Below are positions 9,314 to 39,470 of a stretch of DNA of 64,000 nucleotides, one piece after another (within the stretch, counting starts at the first letter, position 1; the number at the start of each line of letters is the position of its first letter). The translations under genes were made by a program, and so were the position numbers. Source of the DNA: Bacteroidales bacterium (GTDB lineage: Bacteria > Bacteroidota > Bacteroidia > Bacteroidales > WCHB1-69); NCBI GenBank assembly GCA_017443175.1, contig JAFSOZ010000012.1, positions 38,921 through 102,920 of the forward strand, given 5' to 3'. The notes beneath the pieces are model-generated. The model was not told the origin of the DNA and searched no databases. It saw only the letters and a program-made list of their open reading frames with translations.

Positions 9314-9480
9314 GATCTGATGGCAGGTTTTCTGACTTGTTCGCCCTCGGAAGTCTTCCCATCGAAACGACAGTGACTTTTTATTGGCTCCTTGGGGTTG
9401 TTTGAACTTACAGCAGCGGGTACTGTGCAGGATTCACACCTGCTTCCCTCTCAAGATTTCCAAAGAAATCTTTCACCATA
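9314..9480 (-). promoter_or_regulatory. cobalamin (B12) riboswitch aptamer
   Basis: The minus strand carries GAGAGGGAAGCAGGUGUGAAUCCUGCACAGUACCCGCUGCUGUAAG, UCACUGUCGUUUCGAUGGGAAGAC and the B12 box AAGUCAGAAAACCUGCC. Order and spacing match the RF00174 core. Confidence 0.85.
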
Positions 9481-9490
9481 AAATCGGGGG

Positions 9491-9498
9491 CAAAGATA
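9491..9498 (-). promoter_or_regulatory. -7 promoter box (TATCTTTG) for the riboswitch transcript
   Basis: The reverse complement of CAAAGATA lies immediately upstream of the aptamer. Confidence 0.5.
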
Positions 9499-9539
9499 CA
9501 TTTTTTATCTCTACATCGGTTAACACGCAATATTATTTG

Positions 9540-9547
9540 TACCTTTG
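9540..9547 (+). promoter_or_regulatory. -7 promoter box (TACCTTTG) for the C69 dipeptidase
   Basis: TAnnTTTG match about 45 nt upstream of the ATG at 9590. Confidence 0.5.
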
Positions 9548-9589
9548 CAACCTGATTCTGAAAATATTCATTATTTAAATACAAAGTCT

Positions 9590-11341
9590 ATGAAAAAATC
9601 ATTTATGCTAACACTGCTCATCGGTCTGCTGTCGCTTGGCACGACCATGGCATGCACCAATTTCATTGTCACAAAAGGGGCCAGCAAGGATGGTTCCTGT
9701 TTCCTGACCTACGCCGCTGATTCGCATCAGCTTTATGGCGAGCTTTACTATCGTCCAGCCAAGGATTATCCCGAAGGAGCCATGATGGATGTCATTGAAT
9801 GGGACACGGGCAAACTGTTGGGTCGGATTCCGCAAGTGCGCCACACCTATTCCGTCATCGGCAACATGAACGAATGGCAGCTGGCCATCGGCGAGACTAC
9901 CTATGGCGGCATCCATGAGTTGGAGCAAGGCCAGGGCATGATTGACTACGGCTCTTTGATTTACATTGCATTGCAGCGTGCCAAAAACGCTCGCGAGGCC
10001 ATCAAGGTGATTGCTGAGCTGATGGACACCTACGGCTACGCCAGCGAAGGCGAGTCTTTCTCCATTGTGGATCCTAACGAAGCTTGGATCATGGAGCTCA
10101 TCGGCAAAGGCGAGAAGATGCTGGATGCCAAGGGCAAGGTGATGAAAGGCTGGAGCAACGGTGCCGTTTGGGTGGCCCGCCGCATTCCGGATGGCTACAT
10201 CAGCGGCCACGCCAACCAGTCTCGTATCACTACTTTCCCGCTTCGCGACGGCAAGACTTCCATCACCAGCAAGGAACTTGACAAAATCTTCTTGCCCGAT
10301 GTGGAGACCGTCTATTCCTACGATGTCATCTCATTTGCCCGCATGAAGGGGCTCTATCCCAGTGATCCCAAAGTTGCCCCTGATGCCGCTTTCAGTTTCT
10401 GCGATGCCTACAACCCTATCACTTTCGACGGTGCCCGCTTTTGCGATGCACGTGTGTGGGCATTCTTCAATCACTGCAACCCCGTAGAAATAGCTAAATA
10501 CGAAGATTATGCCCGTGGCGACAATCTGAGCCATCGTTTCCCTCTGTGGATCAAACCCGCAGATAAGAACAAAATTGACGCACAGTTCATGATGCAGATG
10601 ATGCGCGATCACTATGAGGGCACTTCCATGGACATGACCAACGATCTCGGTGCAGGCCCGTTCAAATGCCCGTACCGCTGGCGTCCGATGACGTGGGAAT
10701 ACAACGGAAAAGGCTACATCCACGAGCGCGCAACTGCCACCCAGCAGACCGGCTTCTCCTTCGTCGCCCAATGTCGCAACTGGCTGCCCAACTGGTTGGG
10801 CGGTATCTTTTGGTTCGGCGTGGACGATGCAGCCAGCACCTGCTATGTGCCCATGTTCTGCGGCATCAATGAGATTCCCAAGGAGTATGCCCAGGGCAAT
10901 GGCTCTATGGTAGAATACTCTGAAACAGCCGCCTTCTGGACCTTCACCAAAGTCAGCAACTTTGTTTACTCACGCTACTGCGACATGATCAAGCATGTGA
11001 ACGAAAAGCAAGCTTATTGGGAAGGGAAATTTGTGAAAGACATTGACAAGATGTCCGAAAAAATGAAAGACCAGTTTGCCAGCAATCCTGACAAAGCCCG
11101 CGCTATGCTCAATGAATACTCTTTGACTGCTGCCAAGATGGTTTGCAAAGAGTGGAACAACCTCTTCATCTACCTGTTGGTGAAATATCATGACGGAAAC
11201 GTAAAGAAAGAGGAGAATGGAAAGTTCAAGGTGTCTGACACTCAAATTCCGCAGAGCGCGTTCCCAGACCAGCCGAAATATCGTGAGGAATGGTACAAGA
11301 TGATTGTGAACGACTGTGGCAAGAACATTGAGGCGAAGTAA
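9590..11341 (+). CDS. C69 family dipeptidase (secreted)
   Basis: The signal peptide ends at the catalytic Cys (TMACTNFIVTKGASKDGS), as expected for peptidase C69. The start was moved to the MKKSF methionine downstream of the promoter box. Confidence 0.85.
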   Translation: MKKSFMLTLLIGLLSLGTTMACTNFIVTKGASKDGSCFLTYAADSHQLYGELYYRPAKDYPEGAMMDVIEWDTGKLLGRIPQVRHTYSVIGNMNEWQLAIGETTYGGIHELEQGQGMIDYGSLIYIALQRAKNAREAIKVIAELMDTYGYASEGESFSIVDPNEAWIMELIGKGEKMLDAKGKVMKGWSNGAVWVARRIPDGYISGHANQSRITTFPLRDGKTSITSKELDKIFLPDVETVYSYDVISFARMKGLYPSDPKVAPDAAFSFCDAYNPITFDGARFCDARVWAFFNHCNPVEIAKYEDYARGDNLSHRFPLWIKPADKNKIDAQFMMQMMRDHYEGTSMDMTNDLGAGPFKCPYRWRPMTWEYNGKGYIHERATATQQTGFSFVAQCRNWLPNWLGGIFWFGVDDAASTCYVPMFCGINEIPKEYAQGNGSMVEYSETAAFWTFTKVSNFVYSRYCDMIKHVNEKQAYWEGKFVKDIDKMSEKMKDQFASNPDKARAMLNEYSLTAAKMVCKEWNNLFIYLLVKYHDGNVKKEENGKFKVSDTQIPQSAFPDQPKYREEWYKMIVNDCGKNIEAK

Positions 11342-20278: not shown

Positions 20279-21022
20279 ATGACCCAAGCACAGGCGGTTA
20301 TAGAAACAATTGACAAGTTGGGCGGCATTGCAACGCTCAACCAAATAAATCAGCATGTGTTTGAGGTTGATGATTGTGTATGGAAAACTAAGACTCCGTT
20401 TGCCAGCGTTCGTAGAATTGTTCAGCAAACAAAGGGTATCTATAAGATAAAACCTGGATTGTATGCACTTGAGACTTACCGCAAGCAGTTGGAACAAGAC
20501 GGAATAACTGTTCAGACGGAAAAGAATAAGAATAGCGAAGAGGTAAAGGCTTTCAACCATTCATACTACCAAGGATTGTTGCTTGAAATTGGGCGAATGC
20601 GGCATTTGGACACATTTGTTCCCAATCAGGACAAGAACAAGATGTTTATTAAAACACCACTTGGCGAGATTCGAACTTTGCAAGCAATACCCCAATATTC
20701 ATACGCTGATCTTGTGGAAAGAAGTTCTACAATTGATGTCATTTGGTTTAACGACCACCGAATGCCTCACTCCTTTTACGAAATTGAACACTCAACCGAC
20801 ATTCAGAACTCCCTTCTCAAGTTCAATGATTTAAAAGACTTTTCCGCCCGTATGGTAATTGTAGCTGACGAGAAGCGCCATGCTGAATTTGGCAGTAAGA
20901 TGAATTACGCAGCCTTTAATGTCCTCCGAGAAAACAAACGTGTGGCATTTCTCAGTTACGAATCGTTAGACAAACAATACGAGCAAGAACTCCAGAAACA
21001 ACAGATGGATTTTATTGTATAA
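20279..21022 (+). CDS. winged-helix plus PD-(D/E)xK-like nuclease, candidate restriction endonuclease
   Basis: 247 aa. The N-terminus has an Mrr_N-like pattern (IETIDKLGGIATLNQINQHV...IYKIKPGLYAL). The C-terminus has IDVIWFND...FYEIEHSTDI (D...ExE/K-like). It sits directly upstream of a DNA methyltransferase. Confidence 0.45.
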   Translation: MTQAQAVIETIDKLGGIATLNQINQHVFEVDDCVWKTKTPFASVRRIVQQTKGIYKIKPGLYALETYRKQLEQDGITVQTEKNKNSEEVKAFNHSYYQGLLLEIGRMRHLDTFVPNQDKNKMFIKTPLGEIRTLQAIPQYSYADLVERSSTIDVIWFNDHRMPHSFYEIEHSTDIQNSLLKFNDLKDFSARMVIVADEKRHAEFGSKMNYAAFNVLRENKRVAFLSYESLDKQYEQELQKQQMDFIV

Positions 21023-21284: not shown

Positions 21285-22217
21285 ATGAATAAAAAACAAA
21301 TCATTCATGCGGCCGAGGACAATTATGCCATATCGTGCCAAAAGGAAATATTGACTCCCTATTACCATTCCTCCGACCGCGCCTTCACTCTCCTTCATGG
21401 CGATACATTTGAGTTACTGCCACAGTTCAACTTCATGTTTGACATGATATTTGCCGACCCGCCATATTTTCTGTCAAGTGGCGGCATCAGCGTACAAAGT
21501 GGCAAAGTAGTTTGTGTTGACAAAGGAGACTGGGACAAAAGCATGTCTCAAGACGATATAAATGCTTTTAATCTAAAATGGCTTTCACTATGCCGTGAGA
21601 AACTCAAAGATAATGGTGCGATATGGATTTCTGGAACGTACCACAATATCTTTTCTGTTGCCAATTGCCTGACTCAGTTGGGATATAGGATTCTGAATGT
21701 CATTACGTGGGCAAAAACGAATCCACCACCAAATATTTCGTGCCGTTACTTTACATATTCCACTGAATTTATCATCTGGGCAAGAAAGTCACCCAAAATA
21801 CCTCATTATTTCAATTATGAATTAATGAAGCAGCTCAACGACAACAAACAAATGACAGATGTTTGGCGGTTGCCAGCTATTGCCACTTGGGAGAAATCGT
21901 GTGGAAAACACCCCACCCAAAAACCATTGGCTCTCTTGACACGCATCATTCTATCCTCAACAAAAAAGGGAGCATGGATACTCGATCCCTTTGCCGGATC
22001 CTCTACCACAGGTATTGCTTCAAATCTTATTGGACGGCGTTTTCTTGGCATAGAAAAAGAATTTGTAGAAATGAGTAAAAACCGAAAGATTGAAATTGAA
22101 AATGTTGGAACATTCAATGAGTATCGTAGCAAAATAAAGGATATTGCAATTGCAGATTTCTTCGAACCTACAAATATTGTTTGTGAAGAAGCCTTTGATT
22201 ACGGACTACCTTTTTAA
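21285..22217 (+). CDS. beta-class DNA methyltransferase (N6-adenine or N4-cytosine)
   Basis: Motif IV FADPPYF precedes HPTQKPLALLTRII and motif I ILDPFAGSSTTGIAS. This is the permuted beta order. Confidence 0.85.
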   Translation: MNKKQIIHAAEDNYAISCQKEILTPYYHSSDRAFTLLHGDTFELLPQFNFMFDMIFADPPYFLSSGGISVQSGKVVCVDKGDWDKSMSQDDINAFNLKWLSLCREKLKDNGAIWISGTYHNIFSVANCLTQLGYRILNVITWAKTNPPPNISCRYFTYSTEFIIWARKSPKIPHYFNYELMKQLNDNKQMTDVWRLPAIATWEKSCGKHPTQKPLALLTRIILSSTKKGAWILDPFAGSSTTGIASNLIGRRFLGIEKEFVEMSKNRKIEIENVGTFNEYRSKIKDIAIADFFEPTNIVCEEAFDYGLPF

Positions 22218-22220
22218 TTC

Positions 22221-22459
22221 ATGCACAACAACTTGGAAGTTTGGAATCCCGGCAAACTTCATCAGGGAATGACTATTGCAAAATTGAACAAAGAACACAC
22301 TGCAAACCATGTCAATCCTGTGCTTGCCAATCCCATTACTTTACCGGCTATATAGAACAAATCGGAACAGGCACTACAGATATTATCGACCATTGTTTGG
22401 GGTATGGGCTTCGCAAGCCAGAATTCCAACAAGATAATGATTTTCAAGTTATTATATAG
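22221..22459 (+). pseudogene. frameshifted C-terminal remnant of an AlbA_2/HATPase_c_4-type ATP-binding regulator
   Basis: Two frames read ...EVWNPGKLHQGMTIAKL...NPVLANP and then GYIEQIGTGTTDIIDHCLGYGLRKPEF. This matches the conserved C-terminus of that family, with a frameshift near 22345 and no N-terminal part. Confidence 0.55.
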
Positions 22460-22564: not shown

Positions 22565-23254
22565 TTATTTAGGTATTTTACTCATACAGTAATCCGTATT
22601 CAATTTTATTTGTTTGTAAAATGATGTATAATCTTTGTACACCCGGAGTGACAAACCTTTAGTATTTATATTAAACAACGGAAGATTTGCACGTACACAG
22701 TATAAAACATTGTTTATTCTATTGTTAGTTGGACAAACAGAAGAAATTAACGGGATTTTATGATGATCAACAAACCCTCTTTTAATATTATCAGGCAATC
22801 TTTTAATATTTTCATTCCAATAAAATTCTTCTGTATTATTTCTAGGAAAAACTTTTTTAGAATTATATGCCAGTTGCCATGTTTCAAAATCTCTCTTCAA
22901 TTTTTCAAAAAGCGTAACATCAATAATTGTAAAGTCCATGTCACTTTTTTCTGAAAAAGACTTTCCATATTGCTGTGGATCAATTGAAAAACCTTGCTTT
23001 GCACTTCCTATTAATTTTATACAGTCTACAGAAACCTCCAATTCTTTTCCTATAAACTGCTTGACCTGATCAAATAATAAAGGAATTGACATAAATGCAT
23101 ACGGCGGATTATCAATAATATAATGATTAATTAAGGATTTCTGCTCTGCTTCGGTTAATTTGCTGTACAAAGCCTTCATCTCCGCGGAACATAAGAAAAC
23201 ATCCTTTATTAATCTACAACTTTCTGAAAGTTGAAAAAATTTATATGTGTTCAT
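22565..23254 (-). CDS. Pol-beta-fold nucleotidyltransferase-like protein, unknown family
   Basis: 229 aa with a hG[GS]...D.D signature (LIGS84AKQGFS...SEKSD105MD107FTIID). Its start overlaps the upstream gene by 14 nt. Confidence 0.6.
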   Translation of the reverse strand: MNTYKFFQLSESCRLIKDVFLCSAEMKALYSKLTEAEQKSLINHYIIDNPPYAFMSIPLLFDQVKQFIGKELEVSVDCIKLIGSAKQGFSIDPQQYGKSFSEKSDMDFTIIDVTLFEKLKRDFETWQLAYNSKKVFPRNNTEEFYWNENIKRLPDNIKRGFVDHHKIPLISSVCPTNNRINNVLYCVRANLPLFNINTKGLSLRVYKDYTSFYKQIKLNTDYCMSKIPK

Positions 23255-23816
23255 AGCGCTCTACTCTTTCTATAATATATCTTACCCGTCTTCTTATCCG
23301 TTCTCGTTGTTTGTCAGTCATAATTCTTGGCTCGGGATACTTTAATCTAGCAACTATCTCAGCACAAATTTCATCAGGAATTACATTATTTTTATCCATA
23401 TTGAACCGTCGTAAAATAGATTCTAAGTTCTGATATTTAGTTCCATAATATGCTATGTTCAAGTATGTAAAAGCAATACTTTTTTTGTCTGCAATACGAT
23501 GCAACCTGGATGCAAGTATTATTTCACGGATTTTCCGTTCAATGGTATATTCATAACGTCCTGTTATAACCCTAACTAATTGTTGCTCAATTGTACTAGC
23601 TCCTTCTCTGGAAGAAAAAAAAGTATGTTTGATAATGGCTCTGAAGATAGCCAAAGGATCGAAACCATGATGCTTAAAAAAACGACGGTCTTCTGCTTGA
23701 ACTAAAAATAAAATCAATCGGTCTGCACATGGACTATCAATACTACTCCGCTTTATTTCATCTGGCAGTTGTTCTTGTATAAATTTCCATTCTTGTGAAA
23801 TAGACATGATTTTCAT
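23241..23816 (-). CDS. anchorless GT51 (peptidoglycan glycosyltransferase)-like protein
   Basis: 191 aa with GT51 motifs 1-5 in canonical order: AEDRRFFKHHG, GASTIEQQ, RKIRE, KKSIAFTYLN, RIRRRVRYIIERV. No signal peptide, lipobox or TM helix is present. Confidence 0.65.
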   Translation of the reverse strand: MKIMSISQEWKFIQEQLPDEIKRSSIDSPCADRLILFLVQAEDRRFFKHHGFDPLAIFRAIIKHTFFSSREGASTIEQQLVRVITGRYEYTIERKIREIILASRLHRIADKKSIAFTYLNIAYYGTKYQNLESILRRFNMDKNNVIPDEICAEIVARLKYPEPRIMTDKQRERIRRRVRYIIERVERYEHI

Positions 23817-24119: not shown

Positions 24120-24329
24120 TCAATTATCAACTATCATAATCCCTTCCACCTCATGCTCCACAAACGGGCCTTGCTTGCACTCGAAGATGACGGAGCCGGG
24201 ATCCAGGGATTCCACGCTGTGCCAGACATTCTTTCCCACGTTCACGCCGTAGCGGCCTTCCGATGGGTTGAGGACCATGTTTTCTATAAATGTGTCAACC
24301 CCTCCGTCTTCCCCCTTATTTTGGGTCAT
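24120..24329 (-). pseudogene. C-terminal fragment of a WbuC-like cupin
   Basis: The 69 aa (...VGKNVWHSVESLDPGSVIFECKQGPFVEHE...) correspond to the C-terminal half of WbuC-family cupins. The upstream sequence has no intact N-terminal half. Confidence 0.4.
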
Positions 24330-24614: not shown

Positions 24615-25172
24615 ATGACAACAGAAACAGGATTTATCCCGTCTCATGGCAACTACACAGAGTTGCTCACTTACAAGAAATCGCTCATTATCTATTCCAG
24701 CACGGTGCTTTTCTGCGAGCGCTTCCTAAACAAGCGCGACCGCACCGTTGACCAGATGGTGCAGGCGGCGCGTTCCGGCAAACAGAACATCATCGAGGGT
24801 TCAATGGCCTCGGCCACATCCAAAGAAACTGAAATCAAGCTGACCAACGTAGCAAGGGCCAGTCAAGAAGAGTTGCTGGAAGATTATAAAGACTTCATCC
24901 GCAACAGACAAGGCGTTATTTGGGAAAAAGACAGCAAAGAGGCTTTGTTCGTCAGACGCTTGGCCTACCGAAAGGACGAGTCGTTTGAAACCTACCGCGA
25001 GTTTTTGGAAACACGGGACGGCGTTATCTGCGCCAATATCATGATTTGTCTGGTGAACCAGTGCAATTACCTCTTGGATCGGCAAATCAAGCGATTAGAG
25101 CAGGATTTCGTCAAAGATGGTGGGTTACGCGAGAGGATGAGCCAAGCAAGGAGGAATTTTCGGAAGTATTAG
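24615..25172 (+). CDS. four-helix-bundle protein (23S rRNA-IVS-like, with suffix domain)
   Basis: 185 aa with ...VDQMVQAARSGKQNIIEGS...NVARASQEELLEDYKDFI..., typical of this family. Confidence 0.65.
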   Translation: MTTETGFIPSHGNYTELLTYKKSLIIYSSTVLFCERFLNKRDRTVDQMVQAARSGKQNIIEGSMASATSKETEIKLTNVARASQEELLEDYKDFIRNRQGVIWEKDSKEALFVRRLAYRKDESFETYREFLETRDGVICANIMICLVNQCNYLLDRQIKRLEQDFVKDGGLRERMSQARRNFRKY

Positions 25173-25191: not shown

Positions 25192-25238
25192 GTCCTATGG
25201 GTCCTATAAGTCTTAGAGACTTATAGGACCCATAGGAC
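25192..25238. repeat. perfect 47-nt palindrome (22-bp stem, 3-nt loop)
   Basis: GTCCTATGGGTCCTATAAGTCT-TAG-AGACTTATAGGACCCATAGGAC lies between convergent genes at the right edge of the AT-rich island. Confidence 0.85.
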
Positions 25239-38198: not shown

Positions 38199-39470
38199 AT
38201 GCTACAAATACAACTTTTAAGAGAAAATCCCCAAGAAGTAATTGACAGACTGAAAATCAAGAATTTCGATGCTACTGATTTGGTGAATGAAATCCGTCAG
38301 TTAGATACCGATAACCGCACCCTTAAAAAGAATTTGGATGACAACCTGATGGAGCAGAACCAGGGTGCCAAGCAAATTGGTCAACTTTTCAAAGAGGGCA
38401 AGCGTGAAGAAGCCGAAGGCTTGAAAGCCCGCATGGCCGAGTTAAAAGAGGCCGAGAAAGTGGGCCGTACCAAACTGCAAGAGCAAGAAGAACTCCTGCA
38501 AAGCAAGATGGTGCTGCTGCCCAACCTGCCCAGTCCGGCAGTAGCCCCGGGCAAGGGCGCCGAGGACAATGAAATCGTCTATACCGAGGGCGACGCTTCC
38601 AACTTCGACTATGACGCCATGCCCCACTGGGATTTGGTAAAGAAATATGACATCATCGACTTCGAGTTAGGCAACAAGATCACCGGTGCCGGCTTCCCCG
38701 TCTATAAAGGCAAAGGTGCCCGCATGCAGCGCGCGCTCATCGACTTTTTCCTTGACAGTGCTGTGGCCGCCGGTTTCACTGAAGTCCAGCCGCCCTACAT
38801 GGTGAACGAAGACTCCGCCTACGGCACAGGCCAGCTGCCCGACAAGGAGGGCCAGATGTACCACTGCCAAGTCGATAACTTCTACTTGATCCCGACCGCT
38901 GAGGTGCCCGTCACGAACATCTACCGCGACGTGATCCTCAAGGAGAGCGACTTTCCGTTGAAGAACTGCGCCTACTCCGCCTGCTTCCGTCGCGAGGCCG
39001 GCTCTTACGGCAAGGATGTGCGCGGCCTCAACCGCCTGCACCAGTTCGACAAAATCGAGATTGTGGTCATCGAGCACCCCGACCGCTCCTACGAGACATT
39101 AGAGAAAATGACCAACTACGCCAAAGGACTGCTCACCAAGTTGGGGCTGCCGTTCCGCGTGCTCCGTCTCTGCGGCGGTGACATCAGCTTCACGTCTGCC
39201 CTTACCTACGACTTGGAGGTCTATTCCAAAGCCCAGCAAAAATGGCTGGAGGTCAGCTCCGTGTCCAACTTTGAATCCTATCAGGCCAACCGTCTGAAAT
39301 TGAGATACAAGGATTCCACTGGCAAGACCCGTCTCGCGCACACGCTCAACGGTAGCGCCCTGGCCCTGCCGCGCGTGCTCGCCGCCATTCTCGAAAACTA
39401 CCAGACCGACAAGGGCATTATCGTGCCCGAAGTGCTCCGTCCTTACACGCATTTCGACATTATCGACTAA
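38199..39470 (+). CDS. serS: serine--tRNA ligase
   Basis: 423 aa with an N-terminal coiled coil and class II motifs (FRREAGS, GSALALPR). Confidence 0.95.
   Translation: MLQIQLLRENPQEVIDRLKIKNFDATDLVNEIRQLDTDNRTLKKNLDDNLMEQNQGAKQIGQLFKEGKREEAEGLKARMAELKEAEKVGRTKLQEQEELLQSKMVLLPNLPSPAVAPGKGAEDNEIVYTEGDASNFDYDAMPHWDLVKKYDIIDFELGNKITGAGFPVYKGKGARMQRALIDFFLDSAVAAGFTEVQPPYMVNEDSAYGTGQLPDKEGQMYHCQVDNFYLIPTAEVPVTNIYRDVILKESDFPLKNCAYSACFRREAGSYGKDVRGLNRLHQFDKIEIVVIEHPDRSYETLEKMTNYAKGLLTKLGLPFRVLRLCGGDISFTSALTYDLEVYSKAQQKWLEVSSVSNFESYQANRLKLRYKDSTGKTRLAHTLNGSALALPRVLAAILENYQTDKGIIVPEVLRPYTHFDIID

Follow-up and report, generated by a model that had tools for sequence, protein, structure and literature searches.

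A pair of overlapping genes in the genome of a Bacteroidales bacterium encodes a peptidoglycan glycosyltransferase domain of family GT51 that lacks a membrane anchor, together with a partner protein from a family that is probably a distant relative of the polymerase beta-type (Pol-beta) nucleotidyltransferases (NTases). The pair lies in a stretch of 64,000 nucleotides (positions 38,921 to 102,920 of contig JAFSOZ010000012.1, assembly GCA_017443175.1; hereafter the window), and related loci from other sources show that the two genes form an obligate two-component module, a conclusion strongly supported by synteny, gene fusions, coupled evolution and a conserved gene overlap. GT51 enzymes are extracytoplasmic, membrane-anchored wall synthases and are antibiotic targets. 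What might such a domain do without its anchor, and in the constant company of an NTase-like protein? The explanation that we put first, with a probability of roughly 0.4, is a self-contained, mobile two-enzyme conflict cassette, in which a cytoplasmic GT51 effector would consume unflipped lipid II and an MNT-like NTase would restrain it by nucleotidylation.

Gene 1 (23241..23816, minus strand) encodes the GT51 protein of 191 aa, assigned from Pfam and PDB matches, invariant residues and hydropathy. Gene 2 (22565..23254, minus strand) encodes the partner of 229 aa, for which motifs, an AlphaFold2 model and profile-profile alignment (hhalign) point to a divergent MNT-like NTase. The two open reading frames (ORFs) share the 14 nucleotides from 23241 to 23254, which hold the TAA stop codon of gene 1 and the ATG start codon of gene 2. 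A preliminary description of this DNA had given both ORFs and their overlap exactly, and had proposed that they make up a two-component module; the near-absolute synteny, fusions, co-evolution and conserved overlap described below bear out that proposal.

A GT51 domain with a conserved active site

The 191-aa protein matches the Pfam family Transgly (PF00912) above the gathering score and across the whole domain (E 5.3e-30; a score of 104.6 bits where 27 is required; positions 22-177 of the 178 in the profile). It also aligns with solved GT51 domains, namely those of Aquifex PBP1a (E 1e-16) and S. aureus MtgA (residues 38-186). The five GT51 motifs are all present, at E42-D43, G72 to Q79, R94-K95 to E98, K111 to Y118, and R177, and the residues named for them in the preliminary description were correct. 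The catalytic residues are E42 in motif 1 (EDxxFxxHxG) and E98 in motif 3 (RKxxE), and motif 2 has the form GxSTIxQQ. Among 90 non-redundant copies of the module, whose median identity to the window protein is 35%, E42, D43, H49, D53, G72, T75, Q79, R82, R94, K95, E98, Y118, G125, R157, K159, Y160, P161 and R177 are invariant. Since this set spans both glutamates and every canonical motif, GT51 catalysis is under selection.

Homologous GT51 proteins from the module are 188-202 aa long and share the signature RLKYPEP. The window protein has no additional Pfam domain, and it scores far under the NCBIfam cut-offs for MtgA, PBP1A, PBP1B and PBP1C (TIGR02070, TIGR02074, TIGR02071 and TIGR02073), with 59 against 182.65 bits for MtgA, 97.3 against 508.75 bits for PBP_1a and 77 against 494.2 bits for PBP_1c. 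It therefore belongs within the GT51 domain family but outside every housekeeping equivalog. The resemblance to MtgA and the class A penicillin-binding proteins (PBPs) is that of a complete domain, with five motifs, both glutamates, canonical spacing and a near full-length alignment to the MtgA and PBP1a structures. The module proteins differ in their small size, in falling under the equivalog cut-offs, in lacking a transmembrane anchor or signal peptide, in their mobile and sporadic occurrence, in their RLKYPEP signature, and in being always coupled or fused to the partner. One homologue is labelled 'biosynthetic peptidoglycan transglycosylase' in RefSeq.

The absence of an anchor, also remarked upon in the preliminary description, holds on closer inspection. 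No transmembrane helix, signal peptide or lipobox is found in the window protein, and its peak Kyte-Doolittle hydropathy in a 19-residue window is 0.67. An in-frame stop codon lies 9 codons 5' of the ATG, and no hydrophobic segment is encoded in any frame of the 304 nucleotides upstream. Considering this upstream sequence and the homologues of 188-202 aa, the 191-aa protein is not a truncated PBP. The same holds across the family: none of 106 module GT51 proteins with a complete N-terminus reaches a 19-residue hydropathy of at least 1.9, and the two that reach 1.6 do so only in sequence 5' of the likely start codon. With no membrane-spanning anchor, the GT51 protein is expected on the cytoplasmic side.

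At the N-terminus of most module GT51 proteins there is an amphipathic helix some 16 residues long (MRALARMVSLVALWLLRREW type), just before a conserved Trp (examples are found in loci L105, L054, L069 and L009). This helix is hydrophobic, interrupted and arginine-flanked, with positive charge on both sides, and is too short and polar to span a membrane; it may serve as an anchor lying in the plane of the cytoplasmic leaflet. The window copy, which begins MKIMSISQEW, and the Enterobacter copy do not have it.

The partner protein

Nothing in Pfam, NCBIfam or PADLOC matches the 229-aa partner. When 1.84 billion representative proteins, clustered at 50% identity, were searched with a partner profile, 689 representative clusters fell within its family at E<=1e-3, and 108 passed the stricter limit of E<=1e-30; close relatives are scarce, with 7 clusters at 90% identity. 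Every source name attached to a family member is 'hypothetical protein'. Among the members listed, the partner region bears no precomputed Pfam domain; the sole entry is PF00912 on a GT51 fusion of 407 aa. Whether or not it proves to be an NTase, the family is uncharacterised.

Several lines of evidence point to the Pol-beta NTases. In an alignment of 122 partner sequences, G83, S84, G88, D105 and D107 are invariant, and P51, F54, P58, S90, G97, S104, F116, W146, N149, G160, F161, P168, R204 and Y206 are nearly so. The family thus carries the hG[GS] and [DE]x[DE] signature of Pol-beta NTases, and the residues that the preliminary description had singled out, S84 and D105-x-D107, are, with G83, among the invariant ones. 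A further aspartate, D163, lies in the motif GF[IV]D; it does not vary within a subset of 27 sequences and is probably part of the same signature.

An AlphaFold2 model built from the 122-sequence alignment has a pLDDT of 97 and a pTM of 0.92. Its elements are, in order, a helix (58-72), a strand (79-82) ending in GS, a short helix (84-87) and a strand (105-111) with DxD, followed by helices at 113-131 and 140-158, a strand at 161-163 that holds D163, a helix at 175-194, a strand at 200-206 and a helix at 209-226. This order of elements, alpha-beta(GS)-alpha-beta(DxD)-alpha...beta(D), fits a Pol-beta NTase core with insertions.

Comparison with the two bona fide MNT antitoxins of locus L020, the only MNTs among the fetched loci, gave an hhalign probability of 74% (E 2.8e-5), with GS aligned to GS and DxD to DxD across a 10-residue insert. 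NTP_transf_2 (PF01909) is the only recurrent Pfam family, appearing in 10 of the 122 partners with a best E of 0.011 and never above the gathering threshold. Two results count against the NTase identity: the model has no structural match in the PDB or BFVD, so that no solved NTase fold is recovered, and a deep partner profile found nothing significant among PDB sequences. On the whole, we consider it likely that the partner is a divergent, MNT-like Pol-beta NTase.

An obligate pair

How constant is the association of the two proteins? Relatives of the partner were sampled without reference to GT51, by scanning metagenome contigs with a degenerate DNA pattern for GSA[KR]xG[FY]S...SDLD; the 120 loci retrieved in this way all contain a true partner homologue, and 20 other loci were added to them. 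A GT51 gene lies immediately upstream on the same strand in 125 of the 140 surveyed loci, which answers the question, raised with the preliminary description, of whether the pair is conserved as neighbours across genomes. GT51 is fused to the partner in 2 loci and found nearby in 3, and the upstream region is cut by the contig end in 11. The 2 loci with no GT51 are both weak, partial partner hits. Public annotation can miss the pairing: in one locus (L018:9342-10125) the gene call omits a GT51 ORF that is full-length (positions 8-203 of the hidden Markov model (HMM), E 3e-59), so that surveys based on annotation would undercount it.

The contigs with partners at 89% and 57% identity to the window protein all have a GT51 gene of 188-191 aa just upstream, with the same 14-nucleotide overlap, while their other neighbours vary: one set has DUF6016 and restriction-modification genes of the Eco57I/AccI type, and the second has Fic together with an unknown gene. 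An overlap between the two genes is present in 105 of 118 related loci, and its commonest length is 14 nucleotides, as in the window. From this overlap we infer that the two genes are translationally coupled.

In addition, the partner profile search uncovered proteins of 430-634 aa that carry the partner domain at their C-terminus. Five of these (P0021, P0045, P0049, P0108 and P0090) have an N-terminal Pfam Transgly domain (E 1e-26 to 4e-36), giving the order GT51 then partner, as in the gene pair. The largest, P0090 (634 aa), has an extra C-terminal region of about 180 aa (residues ~455-634), which could be a sensor domain.

The two proteins have also evolved together, with distance matrices that correlate at a Mantel r of 0.84, a value not reached in any of 999 permutations. 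In a set of 50 non-redundant loci, each with 3 kb or more of flanking sequence, the neighbours include no third conserved gene, and the largest neighbour family occurs in 4 loci. A third conserved component was accordingly rejected, DUF6016 being linked only in the closest Bacteroidales relatives. Occasional loci carry one intact and one broken gene: GT51 is broken beside an intact partner in L028, L070 and L133, and the partner is broken beside an intact GT51 in L049 and L140.

Taken together, these results make it nearly certain that GT51 and its partner are a functional pair. It is also quite likely that both are active enzymes.

Distribution and genomic surroundings

The module is horizontally mobile and occurs in variable and often defence-rich surroundings. 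Its loci range from 27 to 66% GC, and the named sources are Bacteroidales, Thermotogaceae, Aliarcobacter, Enterobacter and Alphaproteobacteria, that is, members of the Bacteroidota, Campylobacterota, Thermotogota and Pseudomonadota. A plasmid of Aliarcobacter cryaerophilus (pM830MA, 130105-139047) carries the pair, with a 14-nucleotide overlap, between an IS21 element and genes for DUF4365, PLD-like, TIR and DUF4917 proteins; the DUF4365 protein there is 647 aa long, and DUF4365 also lies downstream of the pair in locus L063. In L020 the pair sits among Phd, VapB, two MNT-HEPN pairs and FitA-PIN. The P0045 fusion adjoins an integrase and an excisionase-type helix-turn-helix gene, and the Enterobacter pair, at 9419-10660 of locus L014, occupies a small island of unknown genes after proBA.

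A scan of 229 neighbouring ORFs revealed components of type I, II and III restriction-modification systems, Mrr_cat and ResIII, as well as AAA_15/AAA_21 ATPases (AbiL, Gabija, OLD and PARIS-like), SoFic, PD-T4-6, DUF4365, integrases and insertion sequence (IS) elements. No conserved cell-wall genes were found near the module. From this context, a role in defence or as a toxin-antitoxin pair is plausible.

A tblastn search with the partner found no match in 50,697 phage genomes, and two pattern scans of viral contigs gave 5 hits, none with GT51. The reading as a phage lysis cassette was rejected, since the module is essentially absent from phage genomes and viral contigs. The Enterobacter pair had no blastn match in any complete E. 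coli genome.

The low-GC island in the window

In the window itself, the pair lies in an island of 32-42% GC that extends from about 20.0 to 25.2 kb, with flanking DNA of 50-56%. The preliminary description had placed the pair in an AT-rich island beside a restriction-modification pair and decayed genes, and this picture stands, with a caveat as to the restriction enzyme. Outside the module, on the plus strand, lie a putative type II restriction enzyme (20279-21022), for which the PADLOC match is weak (REase_II, E 2.5e-6), and an N6/N4 DNA methyltransferase (21285-22217; PADLOC MTase_II E 3e-91, Pfam N6_N4_Mtase E 6e-55). These are followed on the same strand by a decayed gene fragment of 72 aa (22241..22459) that resembles the C-terminus of HATPase_c_4 (Pfam E 4.2e-5, over the last 40 profile positions only).

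On the other side of the pair, a decayed C-terminal fragment of DUF6016 (24120..24329, minus strand; 69 aa) matches profile positions 102-140 of 141 (Pfam E 3e-8). Close Bacteroidales relatives carry DUF6016 on the same strand, just upstream of the pair; it is intact, at 175 aa, at the same relative position in L001 (6749-7276), L003 and L004, and 87 aa long in L002. The linkage is absent in more distant relatives.

At the edge of the island lies a plus-strand gene (24615..25172) for a four-helix-bundle suffix-domain protein of the 23S rRNA intervening-sequence protein family (NCBIfam TIGR04258 E 8e-22, TIGR02436 E 4e-5). A perfect 22-nucleotide inverted repeat follows it at 25192-25238. The pair lies between a pyruvate:ferredoxin oxidoreductase-like gene and a peroxiredoxin gene, both identified from their translations alone, and neither a tRNA gene nor att-type flanking direct repeats were found at the borders of the island.

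Variants and distant relatives

Two metagenomic loci, L048 (5062-6549) and L066 (contigs Ga0209726_10001053 and Ga0209211_10068070), have an anchorless GT51 protein of 496 aa upstream of the partner. Here the GT51 domain is followed by a compact transpeptidase-like region with the motifs GSTLKPF, SNN and KTGTT, which correspond to SxxK, SxN and KTG. The only PDB sequence matches of this C-terminal region are transpeptidase domains of FtsI (E 0.008) and PBP1A (E 0.05), and they are weak (E 0.008-0.14 overall). The domain combination points, tentatively, to a peptidoglycan precursor as the substrate.

The few viral-contig hits represent a distant NTase core without GT51. Neighbours were read in two of them, the prophage-like IMG/VR contigs L141 (3298-4967) and L144 (6450-10366), and in both the NTase core overlaps a GmrSD_N/DUF262 protein by 4 nucleotides. 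The GmrSD_N protein matches PADLOC NsnA (E 1e-40), and in L144 a KAP-family NTPase (PDC-S20) comes next after it. These viral sequences, like phrog_32008, share with the module the NTase core (HMM positions ~57-225) and its IGSAK.GFS and SDxDL motifs. They differ in lacking GT51, in placing the NTase gene upstream, and in having a DUF262/GmrSD_N protein and then a KAP NTPase as neighbours. Because the viral NTase core pairs with GmrSD_N and not with GT51, the NTase would seem to be the constant element and its partner the variable one. The viral pair may be a separate NTase-gated system.

A GT51 protein of similar kind occurs on an E. coli IncFIB NDM-4 plasmid (NZ_CP050167.1; L146:4977-6875). 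It is anchorless, 181 aa long, and carries EDHR, GASTIDQQ, RKIRE and ARIKYP. No partner-family match was found anywhere in this locus, and the next gene encodes a Cys-rich protein of 271 aa (CxYC...REHILP).

Relation to known systems

The preliminary description had known of no named defence or toxin-antitoxin system of this composition. PADLOC 2.0 has no model for either module protein, and full-text literature searches turned up no account of a GT51 protein paired with an NTase, nor of a GT51 effector acting in the cytoplasm.

A close parallel is offered by the type VII HepT-MntA (HEPN-MNT) toxin-antitoxin systems, which also include fused forms (PMC13000451, PMC11586414); fused MNT-HEPN type VII systems in particular have been described (PMC13000451). 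In both cases a small two-gene cassette, sometimes fused, couples a minimal Pol-beta NTase (GS...DxD) to an enzymatic effector and is found in toxin-antitoxin or defence islands; in L020 the module even adjoins two bona fide MNT-HEPN pairs. The effector of the module, however, is GT51 rather than a HEPN RNase, with no HEPN match found, so that the module is not a HepT-MntA system, and the gene order is reversed. At twice the size of MntA, its NTase carries extra helices as well as 10 inserted residues that separate GS from DxD; it lies under the Pfam thresholds and has no fold match. Finally, modification of the effector is only hypothesised for the module.

MenT and AbiEii (DUF1814) systems resemble the module as two-gene cassettes with the NTase downstream and with a mobile, defence-related context. 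The module NTase, however, has no DUF1814 similarity, and its upstream gene is a conserved enzyme rather than a COG5340 or MenA antitoxin; the module is thus neither AbiE nor MenAT. Nor is it a CBASS (SMODS) system: the module has no PADLOC match, and its GT51 protein has no extra domain that could sense nucleotides.

Some predicted immune effectors have been proposed to attack lipid II before it is flipped (PMC12419801). The module would share with these lipid II-directed proteins (Lipocone/Min-Wnt and TelC; PMC12419801) a proposed target that is lipid II or undecaprenyl-linked and possibly pre-flip, with growth arrest as the outcome. It differs in that a GT51 polymerase is unrelated in fold and chemistry to the phosphoester-cleaving Lipocone proteins, and in that TelC acts outside the cell. 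Set beside these systems, the module is a candidate conflict cassette of two genes, one for an effector without precedent and the other for an NTase-like protein whose family has no recognised fold.

Proposed function and alternatives

The mechanism that we put first would run as follows. The GT51 protein, on the cytoplasmic side, would bind lipid II and polymerise it before flipping. Polymerisation would drain the pool of undecaprenyl phosphate and lipid II, and wall synthesis would stop. The partner, made together with GT51, as the conserved overlap suggests, would nucleotidylate it and so hold it in check, as MntA does to HepT in the type VII systems. Infection, or loss of the cassette, would then lift the restraint.

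A role in conflict of some kind is favoured on balance over the lack of one, and this judgement is somewhat firmer than that for the specific mechanism. Considerably more doubtful is an elaboration in which the module belongs to an abortive-infection or addiction class: GT51 would polymerise unflipped lipid II (with the L048/L066 variant perhaps cross-linking it as well) and so collapse the undecaprenyl pool, and a novel NTase family would gate it by nucleotidylation while gating other effectors, such as GmrSD_N in prophages.

Several observations weigh against the mechanism. The gene order, effector first and NTase second, is the reverse of that in MntA-HepT and in most toxin-antitoxin pairs. 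GT51, the partner and the fusions all lack a PADLOC match, and no sensor or DNA-binding domain can be recognised in GT51 or in the partner. Broken copies occur both ways and are too few to show the direction of control. Moreover, many of the neighbours are ordinary housekeeping or metabolic genes.

Perhaps the two enzymes act on a common substrate instead. Pol-beta-fold NTases adenylylate sugar hydroxyls, and the ANT and Lnu enzymes of this superfamily do so on aminoglycosides and lincosamides. By analogy, GT51 would bind or polymerise lipid II, and the NTase would nucleotidylate a hydroxyl group on a sugar of either lipid II or the growing glycan. The outcome would be precursors that are capped and so unusable (a joint toxin), a glycan in modified form, or the inactivation of an antibiotic that binds GT51. 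Fusions in the order GT51 then NTase are typical of enzymes with a common substrate, both active sites are conserved, and the tight gene overlap is consistent with coupled translation. Against this reading, the partner has no detected similarity to the ANT or Lnu families, a joint toxin would need an immunity factor and no third gene is conserved, and a cytoplasmic location fits poorly with resistance to drugs that hit GT51 outside the membrane. We regard a shared substrate as unlikely.

Could the roles in the proposed cassette be reversed? The NTase would then be the toxin and might, in the manner of MenT and AbiEii, nucleotidylate the acceptor ends of tRNA or some other essential target, and the GT51-like protein would be an antitoxin or a sensor of lipid II or of the wall. 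NTase toxins with an upstream antitoxin are well established (MenAT, AbiE), and the order GT51 then NTase would correspond to antitoxin then toxin. The prophage-like contigs lend further support, because an NTase core that occurs there without GT51, overlapping a GmrSD_N/NsnA-like gene by 4 nucleotides, is an element shared among different pairings. An antitoxin or sensor, however, has no need of GT51 catalytic residues that are invariant at ~35% identity, and the partner shows no DUF1814/AbiEii similarity in Pfam or PADLOC. Loci with a broken partner and an intact GT51 exist, as does the converse. In sum, a reversal of roles is improbable.

A very unlikely possibility is that the module has no role in conflict and serves an accessory envelope function, such as specialised or stress-induced peptidoglycan synthesis or repair, carried on mobile DNA. 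The RefSeq name of the homologue mentioned above would agree with this, and some loci do lie among ordinary metabolic genes. The GT51 protein is nonetheless without an anchor or export signal and falls far below the MtgA (59 against 182.65 bits) and PBP1A, 1B and 1C cut-offs. The distribution is sporadic, with 7 close clusters, while the GC content of the loci ranges from 27 to 66%. The neighbourhood has no conserved cell-wall genes, and the flanks frequently hold restriction-modification, toxin-antitoxin, IS and integrase genes.

That the 191-aa protein is a 5'-truncated PBP or MtgA lying beside the partner by accident, as the decayed gene fragments in the island might suggest, is scarcely credible and was rejected: the stop codon lies 9 codons upstream, no frame of the 304 nucleotides encodes a transmembrane segment, this short architecture recurs in more than 100 independent loci, the catalytic residues are invariant, and fusions exist.

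Implications

The existence of widespread, anchorless and catalytically intact GT51 proteins, locked to an NTase-like partner, implies that lipid II chemistry is exploited from within the cytoplasm in a way not described before. The partner family lacks a Pfam model, and its fold is neither solved nor recognisable, which makes it a worthwhile structural target, and a soluble GT51 domain could serve both biochemistry and inhibitor work. If the proposed cassette, with GT51 as a toxin or defence effector, is correct, the cell-wall precursor pool would join the known targets of abortive infection, and enzymatic control of the type VII kind would extend beyond the HEPN RNases.

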